DNA of 64,000 nt from Escherichia phage BB1: the sequence record NC_106597.1; one strand, given 5' to 3'. The position numbers and the translations under genes are program-made. The notes beneath the pieces are model-generated. The model saw nothing but the letters and a program-made list of their open reading frames with translations, was not told the origin of the DNA and made no database searches. This document shows, piece after piece, positions 44,414-64,000 of the stretch (positions are counted from its first letter, which is position 1; each line of letters begins with the position of its first letter).

Positions 44414-44680
44414 ATGAAAAAGTTTGTGATTGCACTAGTTGCCGCAGTTATGTTATCTGGTTGTGCACCTGCTCCCAAACCATTTTGTACAGGATTTGTA
44501 AAATCTTTTGGTGGTGTGGGAGAAGAACATTACGGTCTCAAGGTTCAAAAAGTTCGTATTAAGGGAGATCGCTTTCCAGTAGTACAGCTCCGTACTAAGT
44601 TTGGATGGTGGGATCTCAGTCAGTTTGACCTTAAATATGGTGATTGTAAATTTAAACTAGAACAATCTAATTACCTGTAA
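44414..44680 (+). CDS. llp: lipoprotein, Llp-like (receptor-blocking superinfection exclusion)
   Basis: Signal peptide with lipobox LSGC; divergent from receptor-binding gene; driven by a T5-type consensus promoter. Confidence 0.7.
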   Translation: MKKFVIALVAAVMLSGCAPAPKPFCTGFVKSFGGVGEEHYGLKVQKVRIKGDRFPVVQLRTKFGWWDLSQFDLKYGDCKFKLEQSNYL

Positions 44681-45066: not shown

Positions 45067-45245
45067 CATTTACGGATTTGGCTTTGTATTATTCCTAATC
45101 TTCGTAGGTTTTTGGTTAGCAGCTATGGCGGGGTGGATCTAATGGAATGGGTAATTATTGCACTACTGGGGATTGTGATTATTGGGCAGTGTATTTTAGA
45201 TAATCACTTAGCTAGAATTGAAACCTTACTATCGGAGAAACGTAA

Positions 45246-45440
45246 ATGATGGAAGTGGCAGTTACACTAATAGTAATATTAGTCTGGGTAATCCTCATTG
45301 CCTCTCGTATCGTGTATATTCGCCTAAAAACTCTAGAAGCCCAGGTAAAACAACAACAAGTTGCGCTAGAAAAGCTAGTACTACTGCAACGGTGTGATAG
45401 CACCCGTATTCTGCAAATTGAGAAGGAATTAGATGTTTAG
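45246..45440 (+). CDS. small membrane protein
   Basis: N-terminal hydrophobic helix then coiled-coil-like tail. Confidence 0.35.
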   Translation: MMEVAVTLIVILVWVILIASRIVYIRLKTLEAQVKQQQVALEKLVLLQRCDSTRILQIEKELDV

Positions 45441-53714: not shown

Positions 53715-53864
53715 ATGGTTATTTTTCGATCTATTTTAGCGGGTATCTTGGGCGCTATTTTATCGTTATTTGCGATAGCTTTCGGCGTTCACGCTGTTAT
53801 TATTGGCGCTGGCATTGCCGTATTTTCTTATCTGTTAGGCTGCATGACTAGTAAAGGAGAATAA
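53715..53864 (+). CDS. small hydrophobic membrane peptide (49 aa; not in supplied track)
   Basis: ATG preceded by AGGAGG; translation MVIFRSILAGILGAILSLFAIAFGVHAVIIGAGIAVFSYLLGCMTSKGE. Confidence 0.45.
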   Translation: MVIFRSILAGILGAILSLFAIAFGVHAVIIGAGIAVFSYLLGCMTSKGE

Positions 53865-53866
53865 AA

Positions 53867-54079
53867 ATGATTCGTAACGTTTCCCTTGCACGTTCGAAAG
53901 GCTTTAAGCTGGTGGATGTAAACACGTTTGAGCGGGAAGATTGTAAAATCGAATATGTAGCACGTAACAAAAATGCCTTTCGTGTTACCGAGAAAAAATT
54001 CGACAAGCGCGGCAACGTGATAGCTGAAACAGTTAAACATTTTGCCACCTTTTATGCTGCCTTTCGTGGGGTGTTATAA
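53867..54079 (+). CDS. hypothetical small protein
   Basis: ORF with AAAGGAG RBS. Confidence 0.45.
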   Translation: MIRNVSLARSKGFKLVDVNTFEREDCKIEYVARNKNAFRVTEKKFDKRGNVIAETVKHFATFYAAFRGVL

Positions 54080-54080
54080 A

Positions 54081-54425
54081 ATGGTTATTTATGAAGGCAA
54101 TCGCTTTGTTGCTAATTGCCGTCCGGCATTATTAGCAAACTATTTAAATCAGCTTTCCCCAGCCTATAAGGGCGTTATTAATATTTATGAGGGCAAGGCG
54201 CATTATAAAATTAATGCGGTCGTTGCCCGTGAACTAGCGTTTCAATTTTTGACTTTTGCATCTTGTGACGTTCAGGTTATGGGGGAAGCATTAATTGCAG
54301 AAAATGAAGAGGATTTTATTAATATTTTCCGTAAGGTATGCACTGAGCGCTTGATAATGAAAGGCGCGTATATTCAATCAACTGCGGAAAGTATTGAAAC
54401 AGCATTTCGAAAGGTGGCGCAATGA
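54081..54425 (+). CDS. hypothetical protein
   Basis: Start moved to Met14 of track ORF 54042..54425 to remove overlap. Confidence 0.4.
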   Translation: MVIYEGNRFVANCRPALLANYLNQLSPAYKGVINIYEGKAHYKINAVVARELAFQFLTFASCDVQVMGEALIAENEEDFINIFRKVCTERLIMKGAYIQSTAESIETAFRKVAQ

Positions 54426-54491
54426 AATTATATATTTTCGTTGGTAATAGTAAGGCCGCTATTGGCAAAAATATATTTACTAGTGGTTATT

Positions 54492-54686
54492 ATGAGCAAT
54501 AAAATTATTGTTACCAAAACCAGTACAATGGTTGATGTTTTTTACGTTCCCGATACGCCGGAAAACCGACAAGCGGTCGAGCGTGGCGAGTATGATAAAG
54601 TGATTTATGATCACGATGGTTATTATCAACATTTGGTGGATTCCTACGGGGAGGAGGAAAAAATCACGCACCGACTACCAGACTAA
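54492..54686 (+). CDS. hypothetical small protein
   Basis: Start moved to internal Met (MSNKIIVTK); last gene before the repeat block. Confidence 0.35.
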   Translation: MSNKIIVTKTSTMVDVFYVPDTPENRQAVERGEYDKVIYDHDGYYQHLVDSYGEEEKITHRLPD

Positions 54687-54726
54687 TAATCACAGGGCAC
54701 AACTACTAGGAAGTGCCCCCCAATTC

Positions 54727-54751
54727 TCAAATGAGAATGATTCTCATTTGA
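54727..54751. repeat. perfect 25-bp palindrome
   Basis: TCAAATGAGAAT-G-ATTCTCATTTGA. Confidence 0.6.
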
Positions 54752-54944
54752 CCGCGCCCGAGATGGTTAGCCTGCTAATGGTTAGGGTGTTACGTGTCGC
54801 CTTGTGTGATCGTTAGCGAGCTAACCAATTTTTAAGCCTCCTCCAATTTTGCCATTGTTTTAGTATCCCCGCCAAAATTAAACGCGTTAGAATGCGATCT
54901 AGGACGTTTTAACGCTATATTAGAACTATTCACTGCGCAGGAAT

Positions 54945-55053
54945 ACTGTATAAATATACAGTAGGATAAGCTGTGGATAAGTCTGTTAATAACGCCTCAA
55001 AATGGCTAGGATTCTGTCAAGTCAAATCGTGCTGTTAATAAGTCTGTGGATAA
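54945..55053. promoter_or_regulatory. two DnaA-box-like sites in opposite orientation plus palindrome ACTGTATAAATATACAGT
   Basis: Palindrome 54945-54962; TGTGGATAA at 54972-54980 and 55045-55053. Confidence 0.55.
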
Positions 55054-55079
55054 CTTAAATAACAGTGTTTCTCACTTCC

Positions 55080-55260
55080 ATTCTTAAATGCAAATTATTA
55101 TCATTTGTATTTCACTATCTAACTAATAATCATTTCACTTTTTAAATGAGAATCGTTTCACTTCCTGAATAATTTTCATTTCACTTTTTAAATGCGAATG
55201 ATTCTCATTATCATTCCGCTTTTTAAATGCGAATTATTATCATTATCATTCGCATTCAGG
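55080..55260. repeat. degenerate tandem repeats of a ~30-bp unit containing TTTAAATG(A/C)GAAT
   Basis: At least four copies read directly. Confidence 0.55.
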
Positions 55261-55264
55261 CTAG

Positions 55265-55280
55265 CAGGGCAATTGCCCTG
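55265..55280. repeat. perfect 16-bp palindrome CAGGGCAATTGCCCTG
   Basis: Read directly. Confidence 0.6.
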
Positions 55281-55287
55281 CGCTTTT

Positions 55288-55886
55288 GTGCAAATCCGAC
55301 ATTGCTCCATGGGTGTTACGTGCGGGCGTGTATGTGCGAATCCGACAATTTTTGGTAGTGTGCAAATCCGACCCGAAAAATTTTTATAGTGTGCAAATCC
55401 GACAATGAATTTTCCTAAAAACTCCAGCAATCACGAACTGCGTTCGAATCCTGTGGGGTATGTGCAAATCCGACATGGTTTTTCTAGGATTAAGATGTGC
55501 GAATCCGACAAGATTTTTGTGACTTCGATTGGAGGGTGTGTGATTGTGTGAGTTTGGGGAGAAGTTGAAAGAGTGAGAGAAATTTGGGGGAACTGCGGGA
55601 GGGGTGCATGTTTGGTGCGGAGCACCTGATTTGCGGGGATTTTGTGGAAGAGTTGAGAAGATTTGGGTTAATTTGAGATAAGTGCAGATAAAGTAAAATT
55701 TTATTAGCTAAATGGGGCAAAATAGCTTGACAAGTGAAAATTTCTGTGGCTCCAAAAACTCAGGCAATCATGGGCCTTCGGCCCGAAATAATGCTGCCGT
55801 TTTCAGGAGATTATATGTTCCTAAAAACTTAGGCAATTGTGCAAATCCGACCAGTTTTTAAACTCTTGTCAGTGTGCAAATCCGAC
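55288..55886. repeat. eight direct copies of 13-mer GTGC(A/G)AATCCGAC, irregular spacing
   Basis: Copies start near 55288, 55334, 55360, 55391, 55462, 55497, 55839, 55874. Confidence 0.7.
55500..55700. other. C-depleted G/T/A-rich tract (~200 bp) with strong strand asymmetry
   Basis: Almost no C on + strand; GGGG/GTGTG runs. Confidence 0.5.
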
Positions 55887-55926
55887 AGTAATTTCTAGAA
55901 ATGTGTTTTGGAAAAATGTCTTCTAG

Positions 55927-55968
55927 AAATAACCGCCCTCCCAATAACCGCCCTGTATTAACCGCCTA
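55927..55968. repeat. three closely spaced direct repeats (A/T)TAACCGCC(C)T, iteron-like
   Basis: Copies near 55929, 55945, 55959. Confidence 0.5.
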
Positions 55969-56385
55969 TTGCTGGAGTTTCTAGGAATATGAAAACCGCC
56001 TAAGTTGACTAGAGTTTTCCTAGAAACTTAGGAGTCTAGAAGAAAGTGTTGTGCCATCCTAGCAGATGAGCGGCAACAGGTGTATCATCTTGAACACAAA
56101 TATTGCCTTTAAATATTATAAGGTAAATAAAAGTTAATATACCCCCATTTCATGAGAGTTAGTCCCTCTAGGCGCGTGCGATTTGATACATCCTCCTGAG
56201 TCTCGGGGAGGAAGAACAATTGACGAGAACCTGCGAACAGAACCGTCATCAAGTGTTTTCCTACGAGGAATGATGTAAATCTACGGCCTAGAGGTAAAAA
56301 CAAGTTGATGTTTTTAATCTATGAGATTATTATAACACATTATTCTCACGAATGTCAAGCAAATTTCGTTACTTTTAAATTTTCG

Positions 56386-57114
56386 TCATGAGTTTGGAGT
56401 TGGGTAAATTTTTATGCAACCTTGACTTAATAGATATTTTTCTGCCTCTACAGCTTTAATATTGAATATCTCTTTTGCTCCATCGAATTTATAATGATTA
56501 GCAAATTTATTCTCGAAAAATTTATGTGCTTGGTGTTCTATTTTGTAAGCAAGTTCTTTCGATCCTTTCTTGTACTGGTAGATACCAAATACTTCCATAT
56601 CTTCAAAACCCGGCACACGCAATTTATCATACTCTAGATTCTTAAACCTTTGATGTGGCTCTCTAGAAACCCCAATCTTTGTCTTTAATTTCTTCCTAGA
56701 CTGATCTTTATTAGAGAAGATATAGAGATATGTGGGAAATTGAACATCTTCTTCTACTTCCGGTTTCTCGATAGGTGTATTGAGGTTGCTTTCTCTAGCA
56801 CATTGTAAACAACCGTGCCCATCTAGGTGAGATCTAGCAGTTTGCATAAAGTATCCTTTATGCTTATAGCACCATATCTCTACTAACTGATTGGCTGTCT
56901 TATAATTAACTCTTTCATACCCATACTCTTCTTTCTGGACTTTTAAAGCTTTCCTAATAAAGATAAGGTTTAAGGCCTCTTGTTGGAAGTCAGGGTGAAG
57001 TTGCCTAATCTTCGTTATATTAGTAGAGCCATTTGACTTCAAAAAGTTTTTAAGAGGAAACCTCCTGGCTTCCTCGCGTAGCTTTTTATTAATTTCAGCA
57101 CGTAAATCATCCAT
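56386..57114 (-). CDS. hypothetical protein; possible GIY-YIG-like nuclease-related domain
   Basis: 242-aa ORF; weak resemblance (YLYIFSN...KIGVS) to GIY-YIG patterns, plus Cys/His cluster HLDGHGCLQC. Confidence 0.35.
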   Translation of the reverse strand: MDDLRAEINKKLREEARRFPLKNFLKSNGSTNITKIRQLHPDFQQEALNLIFIRKALKVQKEEYGYERVNYKTANQLVEIWCYKHKGYFMQTARSHLDGHGCLQCARESNLNTPIEKPEVEEDVQFPTYLYIFSNKDQSRKKLKTKIGVSREPHQRFKNLEYDKLRVPGFEDMEVFGIYQYKKGSKELAYKIEHQAHKFFENKFANHYKFDGAKEIFNIKAVEAEKYLLSQGCIKIYPTPNS

Positions 57115-57832
57115 CTTTATTAACCTTTAGAATAACTCCTTTTGACGCCATGAAAAGGAATGTTGCTAAGTAAGATGACTCGGAGTTTAGCGCAGAATAA
57201 TCTACACTTCCTCTAGGTCTAGTTTCTTGTTTAGTGTCAAGAATTGTTGCTATATCAAACTTAACAGACTTTGCAACTTTTCTAGCTTGTTCAGGATCAC
57301 GTAAAATTTCAAAGTGTGCAGCATCTAGAATAGGATTAGATGTTGTTGAGTCGTCAACTATACTTAGATGAACCTGCGCAAGTGTCGATACAATTCCTAG
57401 CTTTAATTCAGATAGAGAAGAATAAGGTGGTTCTACTTTCTTTGTAAGTCTAGGAAGATGATCGTATTTACATTGCTTAGGTGGAATCATCAAAATCTTA
57501 GGATAACATTCTAGGGCTGTCTTTGCACTTCCTTCTTTAAAATGTGGGAGTTCTTTATCAGCAAAGACATGGAATGAATCTGCTGAAAATCCTTTAATAG
57601 TCGGATCAACAGTTTGAATCAGACGACGTATACTAATATAAGAAGGAGCTAACGTAACTTCTTCTGCATCTTTATTATATTTAGGTTGTCCACTAGCATT
57701 AATGTATGCAGGATAGAACTCTGCACAAAATGCCACTGCATGTGCCTCTAACTCATTAAGCTGAGAAACACATTTCCCATTACAAGCTCTAGCTAATTTA
57801 ATAATCTCTGCTAAATTCTTTTTTATACTCAT
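57107..57832 (-). CDS. hypothetical protein
   Basis: ORF in co-oriented early operon. Confidence 0.45.
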   Translation of the reverse strand: MSIKKNLAEIIKLARACNGKCVSQLNELEAHAVAFCAEFYPAYINASGQPKYNKDAEEVTLAPSYISIRRLIQTVDPTIKGFSADSFHVFADKELPHFKEGSAKTALECYPKILMIPPKQCKYDHLPRLTKKVEPPYSSLSELKLGIVSTLAQVHLSIVDDSTTSNPILDAAHFEILRDPEQARKVAKSVKFDIATILDTKQETRPRGSVDYSALNSESSYLATFLFMASKGVILKVNKDG

Positions 57833-58443
57833 TAATTACCTCTCTTATCTTCATTAATAGCAGCTCCCAACGCTTCAAGGATAGTATCACTTATACTCCC
57901 AGGTCTAAGATTATTAAAGTGAGTAACATAGAGGGGACTTTTAAAACCTTCAGCATCCGCAGGTGCTACGCTTCGCATATCAGATTCAAAAGCTTCTTGA
58001 GTATGTTTCAACTGTACAGAAGGGCCGTAATCTTCCCCAAACTTATATGACTTCGTACTACTTACCACACCCCCACAAGGAACATTGTGCATATCCGACA
58101 TTAACCTTTTATCGGAGTTACTCAGCATTGAGATTGTCCCTGACTGCCACGGATCTCTAATAGTTACAGGAGTACTAGGACGGTTAACCTCAGCCTTCAC
58201 TAGTTTGTATCCTGCATCGATCAGTGCATTAATCAGGTTATCAGCCGGGATGCGAGCCGTGCCAAAAATCTTACGAGCATCTTCGAGCTTACCTTCAAGA
58301 TCTTTACATGCTCTAAGGTCAGTGTGTGCAAATGTTAGCTTCATAGATTTGAGTTGTATAGTAGCAGTTAAATCTTTAAAGCTATAATCCCATGTGTTCA
58401 GTTCATGGTCTGGTACTACTTGAATAGGTTGTTGTGTAAACAT
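57832..58443 (-). CDS. hypothetical protein
   Basis: ORF in co-oriented early operon. Confidence 0.45.
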   Translation of the reverse strand: MFTQQPIQVVPDHELNTWDYSFKDLTATIQLKSMKLTFAHTDLRACKDLEGKLEDARKIFGTARIPADNLINALIDAGYKLVKAEVNRPSTPVTIRDPWQSGTISMLSNSDKRLMSDMHNVPCGGVVSSTKSYKFGEDYGPSVQLKHTQEAFESDMRSVAPADAEGFKSPLYVTHFNNLRPGSISDTILEALGAAINEDKRGN

Positions 58444-58628
58444 TATTTATTCTCCAGTTTGTCTAACAGTTTATGTGCTGCTAGATTATATTGTTTAAGT
58501 TCACGATTAAGGATTTGGTTTTCGCACTTTAACTCTAGATTCTTGTTGTTAAGAATGTTGCAGATTAGTAGAAGTGCTAGTATTAGTAACAGAGAACCTA
58601 CGAGCATTAAAAGAAAAAGAGTTTCCAT
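58443..58628 (-). CDS. small type-II-like membrane protein with coiled-coil
   Basis: N-terminal TM helix then charged helix. Confidence 0.35.
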   Translation of the reverse strand: METLFLLMLVGSLLLILALLLICNILNNKNLELKCENQILNRELKQYNLAAHKLLDKLENK

Positions 58629-58861
58629 TATTTGAGCCCTAAGTGCTTTTTAAGCTGTTTAATAAAATCTTCAGGAGTATGGTTTCTATTGCCCTGAACT
58701 ACAAATAACTTCAGAGCTTCATGCTGTAGGTTAAGCCTAGCCTTTTCACCACGTAGTTTTCTGTTATCATCTATAGTCCTATTAAGATCACGAGTCTTTT
58801 TAATAGATATGCTGATTGCAAATAATAGTGCTATTGCAAGAATAATTAATACAATTTCCAC
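58628..58861 (-). CDS. small type-II-like membrane protein with coiled-coil
   Basis: N-terminal TM helix then charged helix. Confidence 0.35.
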   Translation of the reverse strand: MEIVLIILAIALLFAISISIKKTRDLNRTIDDNRKLRGEKARLNLQHEALKLFVVQGNRNHTPEDFIKQLKKHLGLK

Positions 58862-58921
58862 TATAGTCTCCTTTTATATGTACTCAAAAGGCCAGAACAA
58901 CTAAGTCCTGGCCTCCTAAAA

Positions 58922-59293
58922 TTAATGAAGTTGTTTACCACTTCTTAACATAGTGGCCGTTTCCATAAGACCTAGCGTAGCATCACGCTTATTGATCTGT
59001 TTACCAAGTTCATCAGTACGTTTACCGATGTAAGCATTAATAGCCATATTCATAGCTGTAGCGAGATCTTCTTTGGTTATCTCTTCATCGTCTAAAGCTA
59101 ATTTAGCCAAAGAATCAAATGTGCTAGAGAGTCCTATAAGATCTGAGGTTTCTCCAGCCAAAATAGGATTAATGTTATCTACTGTTACTTCTAGCATGGA
59201 GTTGACAATATCTTCACCGTCTATTAGACCAGTTTCAATATTACTCTCCCACTCCTTCATCTGCTCCAATAATGGATTTTTCTTTTCTGTCAT
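58922..59293 (-). CDS. hypothetical protein
   Basis: Start moved to ATG 59293 to limit overlap; terminator-like hairpin downstream. Confidence 0.4.
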   Translation of the reverse strand: MTEKKNPLLEQMKEWESNIETGLIDGEDIVNSMLEVTVDNINPILAGETSDLIGLSSTFDSLAKLALDDEEITKEDLATAMNMAINAYIGKRTDELGKQINKRDATLGLMETATMLRSGKQLH

Positions 59294-59702
59294 GGTAGAG
59301 GTTTCCTGTATCAGTTGGTAAGAAGGACGATTGAGCTTTAGGCGGATGTTGTTTAGCAATCCAGTTAAGAATCAGTACACGACTAGGAACAATATCAGTG
59401 TTGTACCAGAAATCATGAACCCATTGACGAGCATCCTCAAACTTACCAAATTTATACGCTTTCTTAAACAATTCAAACCCAAAACAATCTGGTGTGAAGT
59501 CTACTTCACGATATTGAACTACTTTAGAACCAGTTAGGTCTTGGATCGCTGCATTAATTTCTGTATGCGAGAATTTTGTTTCGTGAAACTTGTTAAAGAA
59601 TCGGTAGTTGAAGCGTCCGTTCGTTTCGACAAACAACTGGATGAAAAGATCGTTAAATTGGTTATCAAACCAGTAATTCTGTAGTTGTTGTAGTGCTGTC
59701 AT
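59241..59702 (-). CDS. hypothetical protein
   Basis: 153-aa ORF. Confidence 0.45.
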   Translation of the reverse strand: MTALQQLQNYWFDNQFNDLFIQLFVETNGRFNYRFFNKFHETKFSHTEINAAIQDLTGSKVVQYREVDFTPDCFGFELFKKAYKFGKFEDARQWVHDFWYNTDIVPSRVLILNWIAKQHPPKAQSSFLPTDTGNLYHDRKEKSIIGADEGVGE

Positions 59703-59899
59703 TTACGAACTCCGTTGATTGCCACGATGATGCCTTCGTACATAAAAGGAAGTAACCCAGAAGTGTAGAAGATATTTTCCGTTATTCCTAGATGTCGAAA
59801 AAGTGTATTAAATAATGCTGTTAGAAATACAATCTGAGGCAGTAATACAAAATACTCAGTTACAATCTTTGGTGCCTGATAAACAAGACGTTTTATCAT
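59699..59899 (-). CDS. small membrane protein
   Basis: 66-aa hydrophobic ORF overlapping the next gene by 4 nt. Confidence 0.3.
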   Translation of the reverse strand: MIKRLVYQAPKIVTEYFVLLPQIVFLTALFNTLFRHLGITENIFYTSGLLPFMYEGIIVAINGVRK

Positions 59900-59998
59900 T
59901 GTTTTTAAGTCTCCTTATTACTTTGGCCTACTCCACAATAATAAAAACTGCAAGCACTAATAGTGCTATTAGCCCCGCAGTAATTGGTACTAAATCAA

Positions 59999-60325
59999 TC
60001 ATGGGAGACGCCATACGTAATTAGCTGTCTGTAGAGTCTTAGCGGTATCATCATGGTACATTACTACAGACTTTGGTGAATAGCTATCAGCTAGTTCTTT
60101 ACGAATCATCTTACATTCTTCACCAGTATCGATATTTTTAACTATCACTTTCATATTAAGGGGTGTTAATACAGAAAGCGGTTTCCAGGAGTCCTCAATT
60201 TCAATTCCTACCTTTTTCTCGATTAACATGAGAACTTCTAGCGTATCATCTGGAATGCTAATATTATTATTCACAAACTGTAGTATCTTATGTAAGGTAT
60301 TTAATTCATTAAAATTAAGCTTCAT
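59999..60325 (-). CDS. hypothetical protein
   Basis: 108-aa ORF. Confidence 0.4.
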   Translation of the reverse strand: MKLNFNELNTLHKILQFVNNNISIPDDTLEVLMLIEKKVGIEIEDSWKPLSVLTPLNMKVIVKNIDTGEECKMIRKELADSYSPKSVVMYHDDTAKTLQTANYVWRLP

Positions 60326-60560
60326 CTTTAAGAATATCCTCTACCATATCACAAGACTGTTGCAATTCATCAGCAATACGTTTAATATCGGTTTTTGTTA
60401 TTTTACCGATTAACATCACCAGTAACATAGAAAGTATAATAAGCGGGACTGGAATAACAAACAGTGCTACCTTAACTATATTCTTTGGTGCCCATGTATG
60501 GTACTTAGTAACCAGTACACCAACCACAATCAAATAAAACGCTAGAATAAACATCATCAT
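60315..60560 (-). CDS. small membrane protein
   Basis: Two hydrophobic helices. Confidence 0.4.
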   Translation of the reverse strand: MMMFILAFYLIVVGVLVTKYHTWAPKNIVKVALFVIPVPLIILSMLLVMLIGKITKTDIKRIADELQQSCDMVEDILKDEA

Positions 60561-60838
60561 TTTTTAATCTCCGTGATTATCTGTGTACGCATTACTTTAG
60601 CAGGTAATTTATTATTCCCAACTATTGCTTCTATATTATTTAATTTTTCCTTAAGAATATCCGAGCGTCTTTGTGCTAATTCAATGTCCTGCTCTTGCTC
60701 TAGCAAACGGTGGTGTAGTCCATCATTAGTAATAAGCATATTTTCCATGCTTTTTCGTGCATTCACAATCCCAATAACTCCACCAATCGCTACTAGTGTC
60801 ATAAGCACTAGCAATCCAATGAGAATTTCTGTAATCAT
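60557..60838 (-). CDS. small type-II-like membrane protein with coiled-coil
   Basis: N-terminal TM helix, coiled-coil tail; ATGA overlap with upstream frame. Confidence 0.4.
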   Translation of the reverse strand: MITEILIGLLVLMTLVAIGGVIGIVNARKSMENMLITNDGLHHRLLEQEQDIELAQRRSDILKEKLNNIEAIVGNNKLPAKVMRTQIITEIKK

Positions 60839-61372
60839 TTATTTAAGTCCTCTAAAGTAGGTAAGGGTTTTGTATGATCAAAAGTTTCTATAACAGCATT
60901 AGGCCCATGTAGTTCTAAACGTAGTTCATTAGCTCTTTGAACTGCCAACTCTAAATCTAGATACCTAAAGTAGCCTCCGTGTACTGTAATGCTTTCGGCG
61001 CTTCTGGCCTGGACTCTCCATTGTTGTCGATCTTTTTTTCCAGGTAACTCCTAAGTACCCCGAATTAGATTGAGCGATTTTGCTACGATTATTCTCTTGG
61101 GACGTACAATCTTTTAAATTACACCATCTATTATCTTTTCTTATATTATTTAAGTGGTGTACTAGATTTGGAATATACCCCTCCATGTACAAAAAGGCTA
61201 ATCTATGGGCTGCATATCTTTTTCTATTTATCCCAATAAATATATAACCATCCTTATCAGGACTACCAGCAATACTACCTGCTTTACCTCGTCCTCTACT
61301 GACTTTCCTTATAAACTCGCCCGTTTCCGGGCGGTATTCAAATAACTCTTTTAATCTTTCTTGTGTTAGCAT
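60835..61372 (-). pseudogene. HNH-AP2 homing-type endonuclease interrupted by a frameshift at an A7 homopolymer
   Basis: HNH motif (HHLNNIRKDNRWCNLKDCTSQENN) in track ORF 60965..61372; a 1-nt shift at the A7 run (+ strand T7, about 61033-61039) restores an AP2-like domain (GVTWKKDRQQWRVQARSAESITVHGGYFRYLDLELAVQRANELRLELHG) ending in an ATGA overlap at 60835. Confidence 0.5.
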
Positions 61373-61662
61373 TTTTTCTTTAATTGCTTGACTTCACGCT
61401 CAAAGCTAGCTGCTCGGCGTTCTGCCACTGCTTGATGCTCCTTAGCAAAGCGTGCCTCTTGTTTTGCTAAGTTAAAGGCCATAGCGTTCTTGTTAAGAGA
61501 ATCATACATCTTCTTCATCGCCGGAATAGACATTTTCATCAGTTGCCCCTCAAATCCTTGCATGTCGAGGAGAATTGCTAATACATTGGCCATTTCAGTC
61601 TTGGTAAGGTTAGAGGCGTCGAAGTCTTTAGTCATGTTTTCCATTAGAATTTCCTCTCTCAT
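61366..61662 (-). CDS. hypothetical protein
   Basis: 98-aa ORF with RBS. Confidence 0.45.
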   Translation of the reverse strand: MREEILMENMTKDFDASNLTKTEMANVLAILLDMQGFEGQLMKMSIPAMKKMYDSLNKNAMAFNLAKQEARFAKEHQAVAERRAASFEREVKQLKKKC

Positions 61663-61722
61663 TAATTTATGAACTTATTATACAGAATTTTAAGGCTTAA
61701 AGCAACTGAATTTTTTAATTAC

Positions 61723-62154
61723 TTACCAATCGTTAACAACGCCGGAGAACTCAGAAGCAAAAACTTTTTCAAATTTCTCTGCAATTTCAGGATGATCTTT
61801 GCAGATCAGCTCAATACAGGCTTCTGGAGTCATTCCTTCATCTTCAGGATCCCCATAGTATTTATCCCAAAGATCATCAGGAATGATATGCTCCGCCAAA
61901 TCTTGGAAAGAGATTAACTGATAACGTTCTGCTTCCTCGGGGATAAGGATTTCACAAAGATCTTTATCTATATCACTACGGTAATCAGCAATTAGCAGGG
62001 CATTGCAAGCATGACACTCCCAAACCATCAAGCGTTCAGAAATAGGATTAGACTTATCCTGTACGTAAGACTGAAACAGGGTTCGGAAAGTTGCCTTAAC
62101 TTGTTCAAACTTATCTGCTGCTGCGAAAACTAGAGCTTTATCAACTTTGTTCAT
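61723..62154 (-). CDS. hypothetical acidic protein
   Basis: 143-aa ORF. Confidence 0.45.
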   Translation of the reverse strand: MNKVDKALVFAAADKFEQVKATFRTLFQSYVQDKSNPISERLMVWECHACNALLIADYRSDIDKDLCEILIPEEAERYQLISFQDLAEHIIPDDLWDKYYGDPEDEGMTPEACIELICKDHPEIAEKFEKVFASEFSGVVNDW

Positions 62155-62313
62155 TTTGTTTCCTTCTCATCAATTTATAAAGTAATTATACAGAAACTTA
62201 AGCATTTTAGCAAATAAAACTTTTAATTAAAATGCCTAGTCCTGTACCAATAGCAATACAAATGATTATAAGTATTGCTACTACTTGTATGATTCGTTTA
62301 ATAATACCCATGA

Positions 62314-62835
62314 TTAGACATTTAACATCCAACTAGTTTTATCATGAGAGGTATATTTACCACTCATTATGTCTTCCAGCCGTACTGGTGATTTTGCATA
62401 CTCAACGCAAACGTTAATATAACGAGGGTCTCCCATTAACTCAAAGTGAGTATGCCCGTGTAAGTTCTTCTTGCCCCTTAACTCTTCTGGATGTACTGGA
62501 GCATGGGAAAGCCAAAAGTTTTTATACTTAACTAGGGATTGTACATTATCTACTACTCCTACTAAGTCTTTGAAAGATAATCCTTCTCGCTCTAAGTCGT
62601 GGTTCCCCAAAACTAATGTAGTTCTAACATTGCTAAAGAGTTTTTCGAACTTCTCCAAACCATTTCTAGATACAAATGCATCTCCTAAAATATAAAATAC
62701 TGTACGCTTATCTTTCATGGATGTAATAGTATCCATAATAAATTCATCATGCTCTTCCATAGTAGAGAAGATTGGTCTGAATTTAGTAATATTTGCATGT
62801 CCTAAGTGGAGATCACTCCAAAAGCAAACTTTCAT
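62314..62835 (-). CDS. metallophosphoesterase (small calcineurin-like phosphoesterase)
   Basis: Motifs DLHLGH, GDAFVSRNG, GNHD, GHTH. Confidence 0.6.
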   Translation of the reverse strand: MKVCFWSDLHLGHANITKFRPIFSTMEEHDEFIMDTITSMKDKRTVFYILGDAFVSRNGLEKFEKLFSNVRTTLVLGNHDLEREGLSFKDLVGVVDNVQSLVKYKNFWLSHAPVHPEELRGKKNLHGHTHFELMGDPRYINVCVEYAKSPVRLEDIMSGKYTSHDKTSWMLNV

Positions 62836-63710
62836 TAAAGAATCCTCTGTATGCCACAGCTATCTTCTCGAAGCGTGGTAAATGTTGTAATTTTGCCAGT
62901 TTCATCATTAACTTGCGCAACCGTCAACTGCCCGTTGAAAACACCGCCAGTATCTAGGTAAACACGATTCTGGTATAAAATAGGGTAAGGTACTCCAGTA
63001 TGCCCATGAAACACAAAGTCTACCCCACTAACTGGGGGTACTTCTACCATGTATTTCTCTTTAAACCCTGCATAACGCTGGAAATGTGAGTGTTCTTCAC
63101 CATTTTTAGCTAAGTGAAAACCTATTTCTTGGATTACATCTCGATCCCATAAGTATGGCTCAACATGGTATCCAGGATGGTCATGTGGGTCTTCCTTAGC
63201 TGTTTCTACTTGTGCAATAAGGCTATCCCATACTGGGGTTTCTACTTCGTTACCGCATTCTTTGTACGTAAAAGATACACCACCATGAACAACACCATAC
63301 TTTTTACCACGATGCAATACAGTCAGAAATACTGGCATTTTTTCAGCCATGTCTTCAGCAATATTTTTAATGGTATCTGCATCTAGTTCATTCATGGCCC
63401 ACATACCACCGTTATACATCCAGTTAGCCCAATCTCCCACAATCATAAATTGGTCATGATTACCACGGACACTGATAAAGCGTGGATTATACAGGAATTT
63501 GGCTAAAACTTGTAGGTTCTGCGTGCCTCGATCAATTAAATCCCCTACGCATACAACGCAGTCTTTCTTGCCGTTATAGCCAGCTAATTGTAGTGCATCT
63601 TCTAGTAAATCGTTGCATCCATGAATATCCCCAACAAAGAATAAGTTAACATCATCAGGTACTACTAGTGTTTTATGCACATTAAATTCTTTTTTCATAA
63701 TTATTCCCAA
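62835..63710 (-). CDS. serine/threonine protein phosphatase (PPP family)
   Basis: GDIHGC, GDLIDRG and GNHD motifs in canonical order. Confidence 0.7.
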   Translation of the reverse strand: MGIIMKKEFNVHKTLVVPDDVNLFFVGDIHGCNDLLEDALQLAGYNGKKDCVVCVGDLIDRGTQNLQVLAKFLYNPRFISVRGNHDQFMIVGDWANWMYNGGMWAMNELDADTIKNIAEDMAEKMPVFLTVLHRGKKYGVVHGGVSFTYKECGNEVETPVWDSLIAQVETAKEDPHDHPGYHVEPYLWDRDVIQEIGFHLAKNGEEHSHFQRYAGFKEKYMVEVPPVSGVDFVFHGHTGVPYPILYQNRVYLDTGGVFNGQLTVAQVNDETGKITTFTTLREDSCGIQRIL

Positions 63711-63946
63711 ATAACATTTAAAATAGTTGTACCATAATTATTTGATAGTTTGAGAGTATAACCCTCTTTATTGAGGGCTTTTATAGCTTCATAACTAATT
63801 TCGTCACGATTAAGCTGTACAAAAGAACCTCCAATCTCGACAGAAGATACTATCCTCCGCTTAACCCATCTATACGTTTTCTTTCGGCTCTTGAGAAGAG
63901 CAGCTCTATTAACTCTAGCTAAACGTTTTGCTTGCTCTGCTAACAT
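63701..63946 (-). CDS. hypothetical basic protein
   Basis: 81-aa ORF overlapping the phosphatase start. Confidence 0.4.
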   Translation of the reverse strand: MLAEQAKRLARVNRAALLKSRKKTYRWVKRRIVSSVEIGGSFVQLNRDEISYEAIKALNKEGYTLKLSNNYGTTILNVIWE

Positions 63947-64000
63947 TTAATCCTCCTATCAATCTATATAAATATTATACCAAAATTTTTAGCAAAAAGC

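Follow-up and report, generated by a model that had tools for sequence, protein, structure and literature searches.

What are the small membrane proteins encoded close together in the early region of a T5-like coliphage, and do they share an origin or a task? The question is raised by four ORFs, here called A to D, in a 64,000-nt stretch of DNA of Escherichia phage BB1 (NC_106597.1), the whole of which is referred to as the window. The first-pass annotation described them as a cluster of single-pass membrane proteins with coiled-coil tails, possibly paralogues involved in membrane remodelling, superinfection exclusion or lysis control. The present analysis favors another reading, to which a probability of about 0.5 is given as a whole: A-D are separate conserved early membrane genes, for which a mode of action can be proposed. 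That they are non-homologous conserved early genes, encoding small alpha-helical membrane proteins and arranged in two coupled pairs, is highly probable; the proposed mode of action of A-D, which comprises their topology, an anchor with a partner-binding tail and a complex of D and C, is tentative and rather doubtful.

The window belongs to a T5-like coliphage, and Escherichia phage slur09 is 99.7% identical to it. All four ORFs are present on the minus strand (Table 1), and synteny with T5 bears out their early-region location: A, B, C and D are the orthologues of T5.020, T5.021, T5.029 and T5.030 and follow the gene order of the T5 early region. The proteins share 90% (A), 52% (B), 95% (C) and 96% (D) identity with those of T5 (NC_005859), and all four match PHROGs over their full length (PHROGs 5799, 6021, 4804 and 4984; E 1e-36 to 7e-50). 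Compared with T5, the window lacks T5.022-024 and T5.031, and upstream of its T5.030 orthologue it has a gene for an HNH endonuclease that is frameshifted. In the T5 record, T5.020, T5.021, T5.029 and T5.030 are annotated as containing a single or two transmembrane (TM) domains, and as transmembrane hypotheticals the ORFs are already recorded in the T5 annotation, PHROGs and Pfam (DUF7237, DUF7442). A literature search by gene name retrieved no publication on any of the four T5 genes and no T5 transcriptome paper was found; T5-like phages are absent from the HIDEN-SEQ and transposon essentiality preprints.

Table 1. Features of the early region discussed in the text, with positions in the window.
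Feature	Position	Strand	Description
ORF A	58443..58628	-	61 aa; T5.020 orthologue; phrog_5799
ORF B	58628..58861	-	77 aa; GTG start; T5.021 orthologue; DUF7237; phrog_6021
Terminator-type hairpin	58887..58920	-	Between T5.025 orthologue and ORF B; -23.4 kcal/mol, z -5.95
T5.026 orthologue	59241..59702	-	99% identical to T5 protein; same conserved block as D and C
T5.027 orthologue	59699..59899	-	66 aa; hydrophobic; phrog_5967; dN/dS 0.20
TM mini-ORF	59928..60002	-	24 aa; ATGA-coupled to T5.028 orthologue
ORF C	60315..60560	-	81 aa; T5.029 orthologue; DUF7442; phrog_4804
ORF D	60557..60838	-	93 aa; T5.030 orthologue; phrog_4984; no Pfam family
Sigma-70 promoter-like site	62185..62213	-	TTGCTA-17-TATAAT; 31 nt upstream of T5.033 orthologue
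Hydrophobic ORF	62207..62332	-	41 aa; phrog_21849; upstream of operon promoter

The ORFs are genuine conserved genes of Tequintavirus. A, C and D are intact in 31 of 31 related T5-like loci, and B is intact in all 25 that carry it. Median dN/dS is 0.04 for A, 0.26 for B, 0.08 for C and 0.15 for D. Stop/start overlaps (ATGA or TAATG) occur at the starts of all four, three of which have a recognizable Shine-Dalgarno site. In DNA of 37% GC, TM-like stretches readily arise in random or antisense frames, and the ORF at 60573-60860 on the plus strand, antisense to D, indeed scores two TM-like segments, so that A-D might be thought chance hydrophobic ORFs of AT-rich DNA rather than genes. However, the minus-strand frames remain open in the relatives that carry them, with dN/dS of 0.03-0.35, whereas each of the antisense TM-like frames contains stops in 2-9 relatives. 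Together with the full-length PHROG and Pfam model matches and the coupled starts with Shine-Dalgarno sites, this leaves the chance-ORF reading almost no probability, and it is effectively refuted already.

That small membrane proteins are encoded here is supported by Kyte-Doolittle profiles, the T5 annotation and the AlphaFold2 (AF2) model of D, but the architecture first described for them applies only in part. An N-terminal TM segment followed by a charged helix is found in A, B and D, each of which has one hydrophobic helix and is single-pass as claimed, while C has two (Kyte-Doolittle, AF2, T5 record). Coiled-coil tails are weakly supported, and for A only: its TM helix (residues ~3-26, at the N-terminus) is followed by a four-heptad, leucine-zipper-like tail with Asn at one a position, which reached p=0.018 over a 28-residue window in a crude a/d heptad test, in which B, C and D were not significant. 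The tails of the four proteins are conserved at least as much as the TM segments.

The A/B pair is the more variable one. The start of A overlaps the stop of B in a TAATG, and AAGGAG lies 6 nt upstream of the GTG of B. In ORF B an N-terminal TM helix is followed by KKTR next to the membrane and by a helical C-terminal half that is conserved; the protein matches Pfam DUF7237 (PF23884) over the whole model (1-77 of 77; 93.3 bits, cut-off 27), to which its homologues also have precomputed assignments. B exists in two allelic types of about 50% identity, whose differences lie in the TM and juxtamembrane segments; homologues occur in 349 records, of which eight are at least 90% identical, and the window carries the rare T5.021 allele. 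While A is present in 429 phage records, B is missing from 6 of the 31 loci (~20% of relatives), and homologues of A or B were not seen in a Klebsiella T5-like phage that keeps the order from D to T5.025. We infer that A and B form a more dispensable accessory pair.

The other pair is more widely kept. In ORF D, G8 and a G19-G20-x-x-G23 motif are conserved in the N-terminal TM helix, and E49, E53, Q56, R58, S59, D60, K63, K65 and E70 are invariant in the tail. Its AF2 model (pLDDT 92.8) has a helix from residue 2 to 73, continuous over 72 residues, a break at 74-79 (GNxKLP) and a second helix at 80-92. Since the Shine-Dalgarno site of C overlaps the codons for ITEIKK, the conserved C-terminus of D, this conservation may partly be a nucleotide-level constraint. 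ORF C, whose start overlaps D in an ATGA, has hydrophobic helices at ~1-18 and 31-52 (Kyte-Doolittle) with P37 and P39 invariant, followed by an acidic helical tail; its AF2 model, of low pLDDT (64.9), gives helices 2-20, 25-35 and 37-80. It matches Pfam DUF7442 (PF24226, 'phage membrane protein') at 140.3 bits (cut-off 23.8, model 1-79 of 79), and PF24226 is assigned to all its homologues. Phage records with D number 517, among them Klebsiella T5-likes at 33% identity; C was found in 437 records by tblastn and also occurs in the 82 records from Klebsiella, in which it has diverged too far for tblastn. The two always co-occur, and the order D-C-T5.028-T5.027-T5.026-T5.025 is kept in the Klebsiella T5-like phage at 31-45% identity; Proteus phage PM135 has a positional analogue of D. 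Word-indexed searches for remote homologues of D, B and C returned T5-like phage proteins only. A full HMM search with the D profile against 1.84 billion representatives gave eight clusters, six of them its own family or fragments and two long repetitive proteins, probably spurious. The same profile found nothing below E=0.77 among PDB sequences, and the best Foldseek match of the D model in the PDB (E=0.78) was the EB1-like dimeric coiled coil of Mal3, a resemblance of shape only.

A tandem duplication of one TM-plus-coiled-coil ancestor, as the suggestion of paralogy would imply, has points in its favor: the four genes are small, close and on the same strand, their gross architecture is common, three of the four proteins have an acidic residue at position 2-4 before a hydrophobic helix, and T5.031 and a 48-aa mini-ORF have the same layout. 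The comparisons do not support it. Pairwise Smith-Waterman scores of the tails lie at shuffle level (z -1.3 to 0.7), and the full-length scores (z of at most 2.4) come from TM composition. In hhalign comparisons of ortholog alignments the highest probability was 12.8%, for A against B and in the TM segment only, with all other pairs below 2%. The proteins fall into four different PHROGs, the Pfam matches of B and C are to different DUFs, C differs in TM number, the phyletic range differs between the two pairs, and T5.031 and the mini-ORF compare with A-D at noise level. Since proteins this short could diverge beyond recognition, paralogy would be better called unsupported than disproved, but it is very unlikely.

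As to layout, 'cluster' is a loose term. A-D are two translationally coupled pairs, separated by 1.45 kb in which genes for soluble proteins lie, with one pair in each of two consecutive early transcription units. The units are split by the terminator-type hairpin, the counterpart of the terminator annotated after T5.025 in T5. The promoter-like site lies at the same distance from the T5.033 orthologue as the P-F30 promoter in T5, and is likely the start of the early operon with D and C. This pair, conserved out to the Klebsiella T5-like phages, is in one block with T5.026, whose product in T5 binds the beta subunit of E. coli RNA polymerase (PMC7472727). The same 4 kb also has the other small hydrophobic ORFs of Table 1 (59699-59899, 59928-60002, 62207-62332). 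The T5.027 orthologue, with two TM domains according to the T5 record, is in the operon between the two pairs. The TM mini-ORF represents, in truncated form, a 48-aa ORF (TM plus basic tail) that is otherwise conserved, with CAG changed to TAG in the window and slur09 and a dN/dS of ~0 at dS 0.17. For the 41-aa hydrophobic ORF, with dN/dS 0.75, the evidence of a real gene is weaker. An Rfam scan of 54000-64000 gave no match.

How such proteins might act can be proposed from their flanking charges. In A, B and D the N-terminus ahead of the TM segment is only 1-4 residues long, acidic and free of K/R, and a hydrophobic stretch of 20-25 residues with K/R directly behind it follows; K/R counts are 0 before the TM segment and 2-5 after it (2 vs 0 in A and D). 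A cleavable signal peptide was rejected for these helices, which have no basic n-region, an h-region of 20-25 residues and an acidic N-terminus. The three proteins would insert into the inner membrane N-out/C-in, like Pf3 coat protein, and their tails would therefore be cytoplasmic, a prediction made by the positive-inside rule alone and, for A and D, from small charge differences. The charges of C (three K/R in the loop, four in the proximal tail) leave its predicted topology ambiguous. The TM segment may serve mainly as an anchor or oligomerization element, given the GxxxG-like motif in D, while the conserved polar tail could offer a specific binding surface for recruiting, sequestering or regulating a partner protein at the membrane. 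Numerous small membrane proteins of bacteria and phages act on larger host proteins in this way. D and the two-pass C probably act together in one membrane complex of the conserved T5.033-T5.025 early host-takeover block, as their co-occurrence and ATGA translational coupling, the only basis for this proposal, would suggest. With low confidence, A-D may thus be described as membrane-anchored accessory host-takeover factors with predicted cytoplasmic tails.

This arrangement has parallels among known proteins. Pf3 coat protein inserts N-out/C-in, and AcrZ is a bacterial small-protein regulator. Bitopic proteins of this type resemble A, B and D in size (40-90 aa), in the short acidic K/R-free N-tail and in the single hydrophobic helix followed by basic residues and a cytoplasmic tail (here predicted). 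The likeness is architectural, without sequence relationship, and the tails of A, B and D are helical and much longer. With Rz i-spanins and FtsB, FtsL and DivIC, A and D have in common an N-terminal TM segment and a long helix, which is coiled-coil-capable in A and interrupted by the break in D. However, those proteins are N-in/C-out with periplasmic coiled coils, the reverse of what the flanking charges of A and D predict, and neither an o-spanin partner gene nor a Pfam match was found for A or D. T5 itself offers a further comparison. Toxicity and deletion screens, which cover pre-early genes 001-017 only, showed that the small TM genes 011 and 013 of this class are toxic to E. coli, and one of the toxic pre-early genes is reported to compromise membrane integrity (bioRxiv 10.64898/2026.04.02.716235; PMC8201957). 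T5.011 and T5.013 are, like A-D, small TM proteins of T5 expressed before the late genes, but they lie on first-step-transfer DNA and belong to a different temporal class. A 49-aa two-TM ORF at 53715-53864, among the plus-strand genes taken as pre-early, has no similarity to A-D.

Neither homology nor gene context favors membrane remodelling, superinfection exclusion or lysis control, the roles suggested at first. Searches of Pfam, PHROGs, NCBIfam and PADLOC placed A-D in no functional family and matched them to no holin, Imm/Sp/Sie or defence model, and no endolysin or o-spanin partner adjoins the genes. Lysis control would have C as a class-II-type holin, antiholin or pinholin and D, A or B as antiholin- or i-spanin-like timers. 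At 81 aa, C is about as long as class II holins and pinholins (~80 aa), and like theirs its two TM helices precede a C-terminal tail that is highly charged; one of its orthologues is auto-named 'Holin' in UniRef, the helical layout of D (TM helix, long helix, break, second helix) is i-spanin-like, and the early region also holds the T5 lysis genes. But the T5-likes already have the holin-endolysin pair T5.041/T5.040 and the spanins T5.044/045, ~4.5-7 kb away; the neighbors of C are D and the T5.028 orthologue, and the T5.040/041 cassette is several kb off. The best holin match of C in Pfam, Phage_holin_6_1, scores 12.5 bits against a threshold of 24.9 (E=0.2). No gene for an endolysin or a lipoprotein o-spanin lies beside or inside these genes, and no lipobox ORF occurs beside or inside A, B or D. 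With their C-termini predicted to be inside, A, B and D would be oriented opposite to an i-spanin. A lysis role is improbable.

Exclusion at the inner membrane, which would block DNA entry of secondary phages and complement Llp, the lipoprotein of T5 in the outer membrane, is unlikely as well. T4 Imm and Sp and HK97 gp15 are known exclusion proteins that are small, located in the inner membrane and made early, a general profile that A-D share, and the two divergent alleles of B might be expected in an arms race. Yet A, C and D show strong conservation instead of diversification, a predicted cytoplasmic tail fits poorly with a periplasmic block of DNA entry, and no similarity to an exclusion family emerged from Pfam, PHROGs, NCBIfam or PADLOC; the only matches to exclusion or defence families were sub-threshold (E 0.007 or worse, 10-14 bits). 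A role against membrane-associated abortive-infection or other defence systems of the host would agree with the accessory nature and allelic variants of B. Most T5/BF23 early genes are without predicted function and are generally presumed to be host-takeover or anti-immunity factors (PMC10644984). But known anti-defence and defence models remained unmatched (PADLOC, E 0.007 or worse, 12-14 bits), and D and C are kept in phages of hosts, Escherichia, Salmonella and Klebsiella among them, that differ in their defence repertoires, so a housekeeping infection role fits them better than counter-defence, for which the chances appear slim.

Conserved early membrane genes with proposed partner-binding tails remain the preferred reading. 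A stronger version, in which D and C form a heteromeric inner-membrane complex dedicated to a Demerecviridae-specific step instead of being generic accessory factors, is a long shot. If true, the complex may tether the machinery of phage transcription or replication to the membrane, an idea that comes from the block which the pair shares with the RNA-polymerase-binding gpT5.026, or it may manage the DNA-entry channel after second-step transfer. Apart from their use in planning experiments, the findings repeat known T5 annotation, PHROGs and Pfam, open no long-standing question and describe an ordinary feature. A-D belong to the large set of uncharacterized early genes of T5-like phages, which see wide use in biocontrol and in work on phage-host interaction. 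For the planning of experiments, it is useful that A-D are real, separately evolved membrane proteins, that T5.030/T5.029 forms a module conserved within the subfamily, and that the T5.021/T5.020 pair is variable.

Across 58000-61400, the sequence shares 99.7% identity with Escherichia phage slur09 (Tequintavirus, Demerecviridae) and 90-95% with many further T5-like phages, and its gene order is that of the T5 reference record (NC_005859). Because the gene order matches, the four small ORFs A, B, C and D can be assigned to individual T5 genes (table). All are minus-strand genes and occupy the left end of the early region; comparison with T5 upholds the early-region location that the first-pass annotation proposed. 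They are already catalogued in the T5 annotation notes, in PHROGs and as Pfam DUFs.

Features discussed in the text (window coordinates)
Feature	Coordinates	Strand	Assignment or remark
ORF A	58443-58628	-	T5.020 orthologue (gene order vs T5)
ORF B	58628-58861	-	T5.021 orthologue (gene order vs T5)
ORF C	60315-60560	-	T5.029 orthologue (gene order vs T5)
ORF D	60557-60838	-	T5.030 orthologue (gene order vs T5)
End of ORF D	60557-60575	-	ACGGAGATTAAAAAATGA
Mini-ORF, 24 aa	59928-60002	-	TM helix
HNH homing endonuclease gene	60835-61372	-	ORFs 60965-61372 and ~60835-61010
Promoter-like site	62213-62185	-	
Hairpin	58887-58920		-23.4 kcal/mol, z -5.95
Stretch without T5.022-T5.024	58861-58922		
Sigma-70 promoter	56329-56358	-	TTGACA-18-TATAAT, extended -10 TG
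45-aa ORF	45112-45249	+	
Gene near the 45-aa ORF	44414-44680		looks like llp lipoprotein
Gene block	~51.8-54.7 kb	+	taken as candidate pre-early/terminal-repeat genes

ORFs A-D are real genes. Of 31 related loci, all carry intact A, C and D, and 25 carry B, which is absent from 6; the median dN/dS against these loci is 0.04 for A, 0.26 for B, 0.08 for C and 0.15 for D. Since the window is AT-rich (GC about 37% here), ORFs in the wrong frame frequently look hydrophobic; the antisense ORFs over A, C and D are broken by in-frame stops in several relatives, which never happens to the minus-strand frames of these three genes. ORFs D and C overlap the preceding gene by an ATGA stop/start and ORF A by TAATG, while the start of ORF B follows an intergenic terminator, with AAGGAG 6 nt 5' of its GTG start codon; Shine-Dalgarno sequences are also present at D and C. 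The invariant C-terminus of D (…ITEIKK) corresponds to ACGGAGATTAAAAAATGA, where two translation signals of ORF C, its Shine-Dalgarno sequence and its start codon, also lie. Because the coding stretch overlaps these start signals, its conservation may reflect a dual constraint of coding and translational coupling.

The four proteins had been described as single-pass membrane proteins with an N-terminal transmembrane (TM) helix, a charged helix and coiled-coil tails. That they are small membrane proteins is supported, and the layout applies to three of them: in Kyte-Doolittle profiles A, B and D have one N-terminal hydrophobic segment each and C has two, which removes the single-pass label from C. 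The T5 record notes 'contains single transmembrane domain' for T5.020, T5.021, T5.030 and T5.031 and 'contains two transmembrane domains' for T5.027 and T5.029. An AlphaFold2 model of D, built on a 26-sequence alignment, is confident (pLDDT 92.8) and consists of a single helix 2-73, a break at the conserved GNxKLP and a helix 80-92; as one helix spans 2-73, the TM segment is predicted to run directly into the soluble part. The model of C is of low confidence (pLDDT 64.9; helices 2-20, 25-35 and 37-80), and its predicted secondary structure agrees with two TM helices and a helical acidic tail. In a crude heptad test, only A has a significant pattern, a 4-heptad zipper (p=0.018) in which one a position is occupied by Asn, and B, C and D are indistinguishable from shuffles. 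A coiled coil is thus plausible in A and D and demonstrated in none of the four.

By the positive-inside rule, the flanking charges indicate membrane topology. The N-termini of A, B and D contain no K/R and an acidic residue at position 2-4, and 2-5 K/R follow the TM segment; on these grounds the three proteins are predicted to be N-out/C-in, with cytoplasmic tails. A cleavable signal peptide was ruled out by the over-long hydrophobic stretch and the wrong charge.

The suggestion that the four are paralogues found no support. Local alignments of the soluble tails gave z-scores of -1.3 to 0.7, and full-length scores reached z of at most 2.4, coming from the TM segments. When ortholog alignments were compared by hhalign, A and B gave 12.8% probability, in the TM region, and every other pair stayed below 2%. 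The four are distributed over four separate PHROGs, and Pfam families exist for B (DUF7237) and C (DUF7442) only, the two being different. T5.031 and a conserved 48-aa mini-ORF have the same layout, but their similarity to A-D is not significant. Because alignments, profiles and families show no kinship, the common layout is best explained by convergence or by divergence past detection.

In a tblastn search of 50,697 phage records, A matched 429, B 349, C 437 and D 517, all of them T5-like phages with named hosts such as Escherichia, Salmonella, Shigella, Citrobacter, Klebsiella and Yersinia; no relative outside T5-like phages was found in 5.8 billion proteins or 1.84 billion cluster representatives. 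One Klebsiella T5-like phage keeps the order D-C-T5.028-T5.027-T5.026-T5.025 at 31-45% identity and has no homologue of A or B. The more distant Proteus phage PM135 carries an unannotated 97-aa ORF (MILESVVGLLVV...; L033:2215-2508, plus strand) with a TM helix and a long helix, directly after the T5.032 homologue, the position of D. This ORF probably represents a gene overlooked in annotation and a remote counterpart of D. Since hhalign supports the TM part alone (66%), it counts as a positional analogue rather than an established orthologue.

Several variants were observed in these genes and around them. ORF B is dimorphic, its two allelic types being about 50% identical overall, with a conserved C-terminal half and a nearly unrelated TM and juxtamembrane part; the allele of the window occurs at ≥90% identity in only 8/349 records (tblastn). 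The mini-ORF, ATGA-coupled to the T5.028 orthologue, has 48 conserved codons in most relatives (MIDLVPITAGLIALLVLAVFIIVEQAKVIRRLKNN..., TM helix and basic tail), being unannotated in T5 and annotated in phage ESCO40. In the window and slur09, CAG->TAG cuts it right behind the TM helix, and the codons downstream are still conserved. A metagenomic contig (3338 nt) encodes a natural in-frame T5.029-T5.027 chimera (P0138), in which the first ~27 residues of T5.029 are joined to T5.027 through an APK(N)IV microhomology that both have, removing T5.028 and the mini-ORF. Elsewhere in the window, a 45-aa ORF combines a TM helix at the N-terminus with a charged, helical tail (…EWVIIALLGIVIIGQCILDNHLARIETLLSEKRK); the nearby gene looks like llp from its lipobox-like N-terminus.

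The unit containing D opens with a promoter-like site 31 nt before the T5.033 orthologue, the spacing of P-F30 in T5, and closes with a strong hairpin that corresponds to the terminator behind T5.025 in T5; B and A lie downstream. In T5, T5.022-T5.024 sit between T5.025 and T5.021. The window lacks these three genes, hence also the T5 promoter inside T5.023, and ORF B adjoins the hairpin directly; terminator read-through into B, A and the genes downstream is one possibility. In place of T5.031, the window has an HNH homing endonuclease gene between its T5.032 and T5.030 orthologues. It is split by a frameshift, as a pseudogene or by assembly error, and is intact (178 aa) in relatives such as ESCO40. 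A perfect sigma-70 promoter lies just 3' of the leftmost early genes and faces a non-coding stretch beside the plus-strand block, with no obvious conserved gene behind it.

Family libraries and structure search gave no functional lead, and a literature search found no paper on T5.020, T5.021, T5.029 or T5.030; published T5 toxicity and deletion screens are limited to pre-early genes (bioRxiv 10.64898/2026.04.02.716235; PMC8201957). Besides membrane remodelling, the first-pass annotation had proposed superinfection exclusion and lysis control. Both are possible, as is anti-defence, and gene context favours none of the three: no endolysin or o-spanin gene adjoins A-D, and the holin, endolysin and spanins of T5 are encoded elsewhere.

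The tails of A-D are conserved at least as well as the TM segments, that of D has many invariant charged residues, and the TM segment of D retains a G19-G20-x-x-G23 small-residue motif. On account of these features we propose, with low confidence, that A-D would be adaptors anchored in the membrane that bind a specific partner through their cytoplasmic helices. D and C would probably act together, with A and B as an accessory pair that is more dispensable. The T5.026 orthologue sits in the block with D and C; the protein encoded by T5.026 binds the beta subunit of RNA polymerase (PMC7472727). According to the BF23 genome paper, the function of most early genes cannot be predicted, and a role in host takeover or anti-immunity is presumed (PMC10644984). 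Small membrane-protein genes such as A-D are typical of phage early regions.
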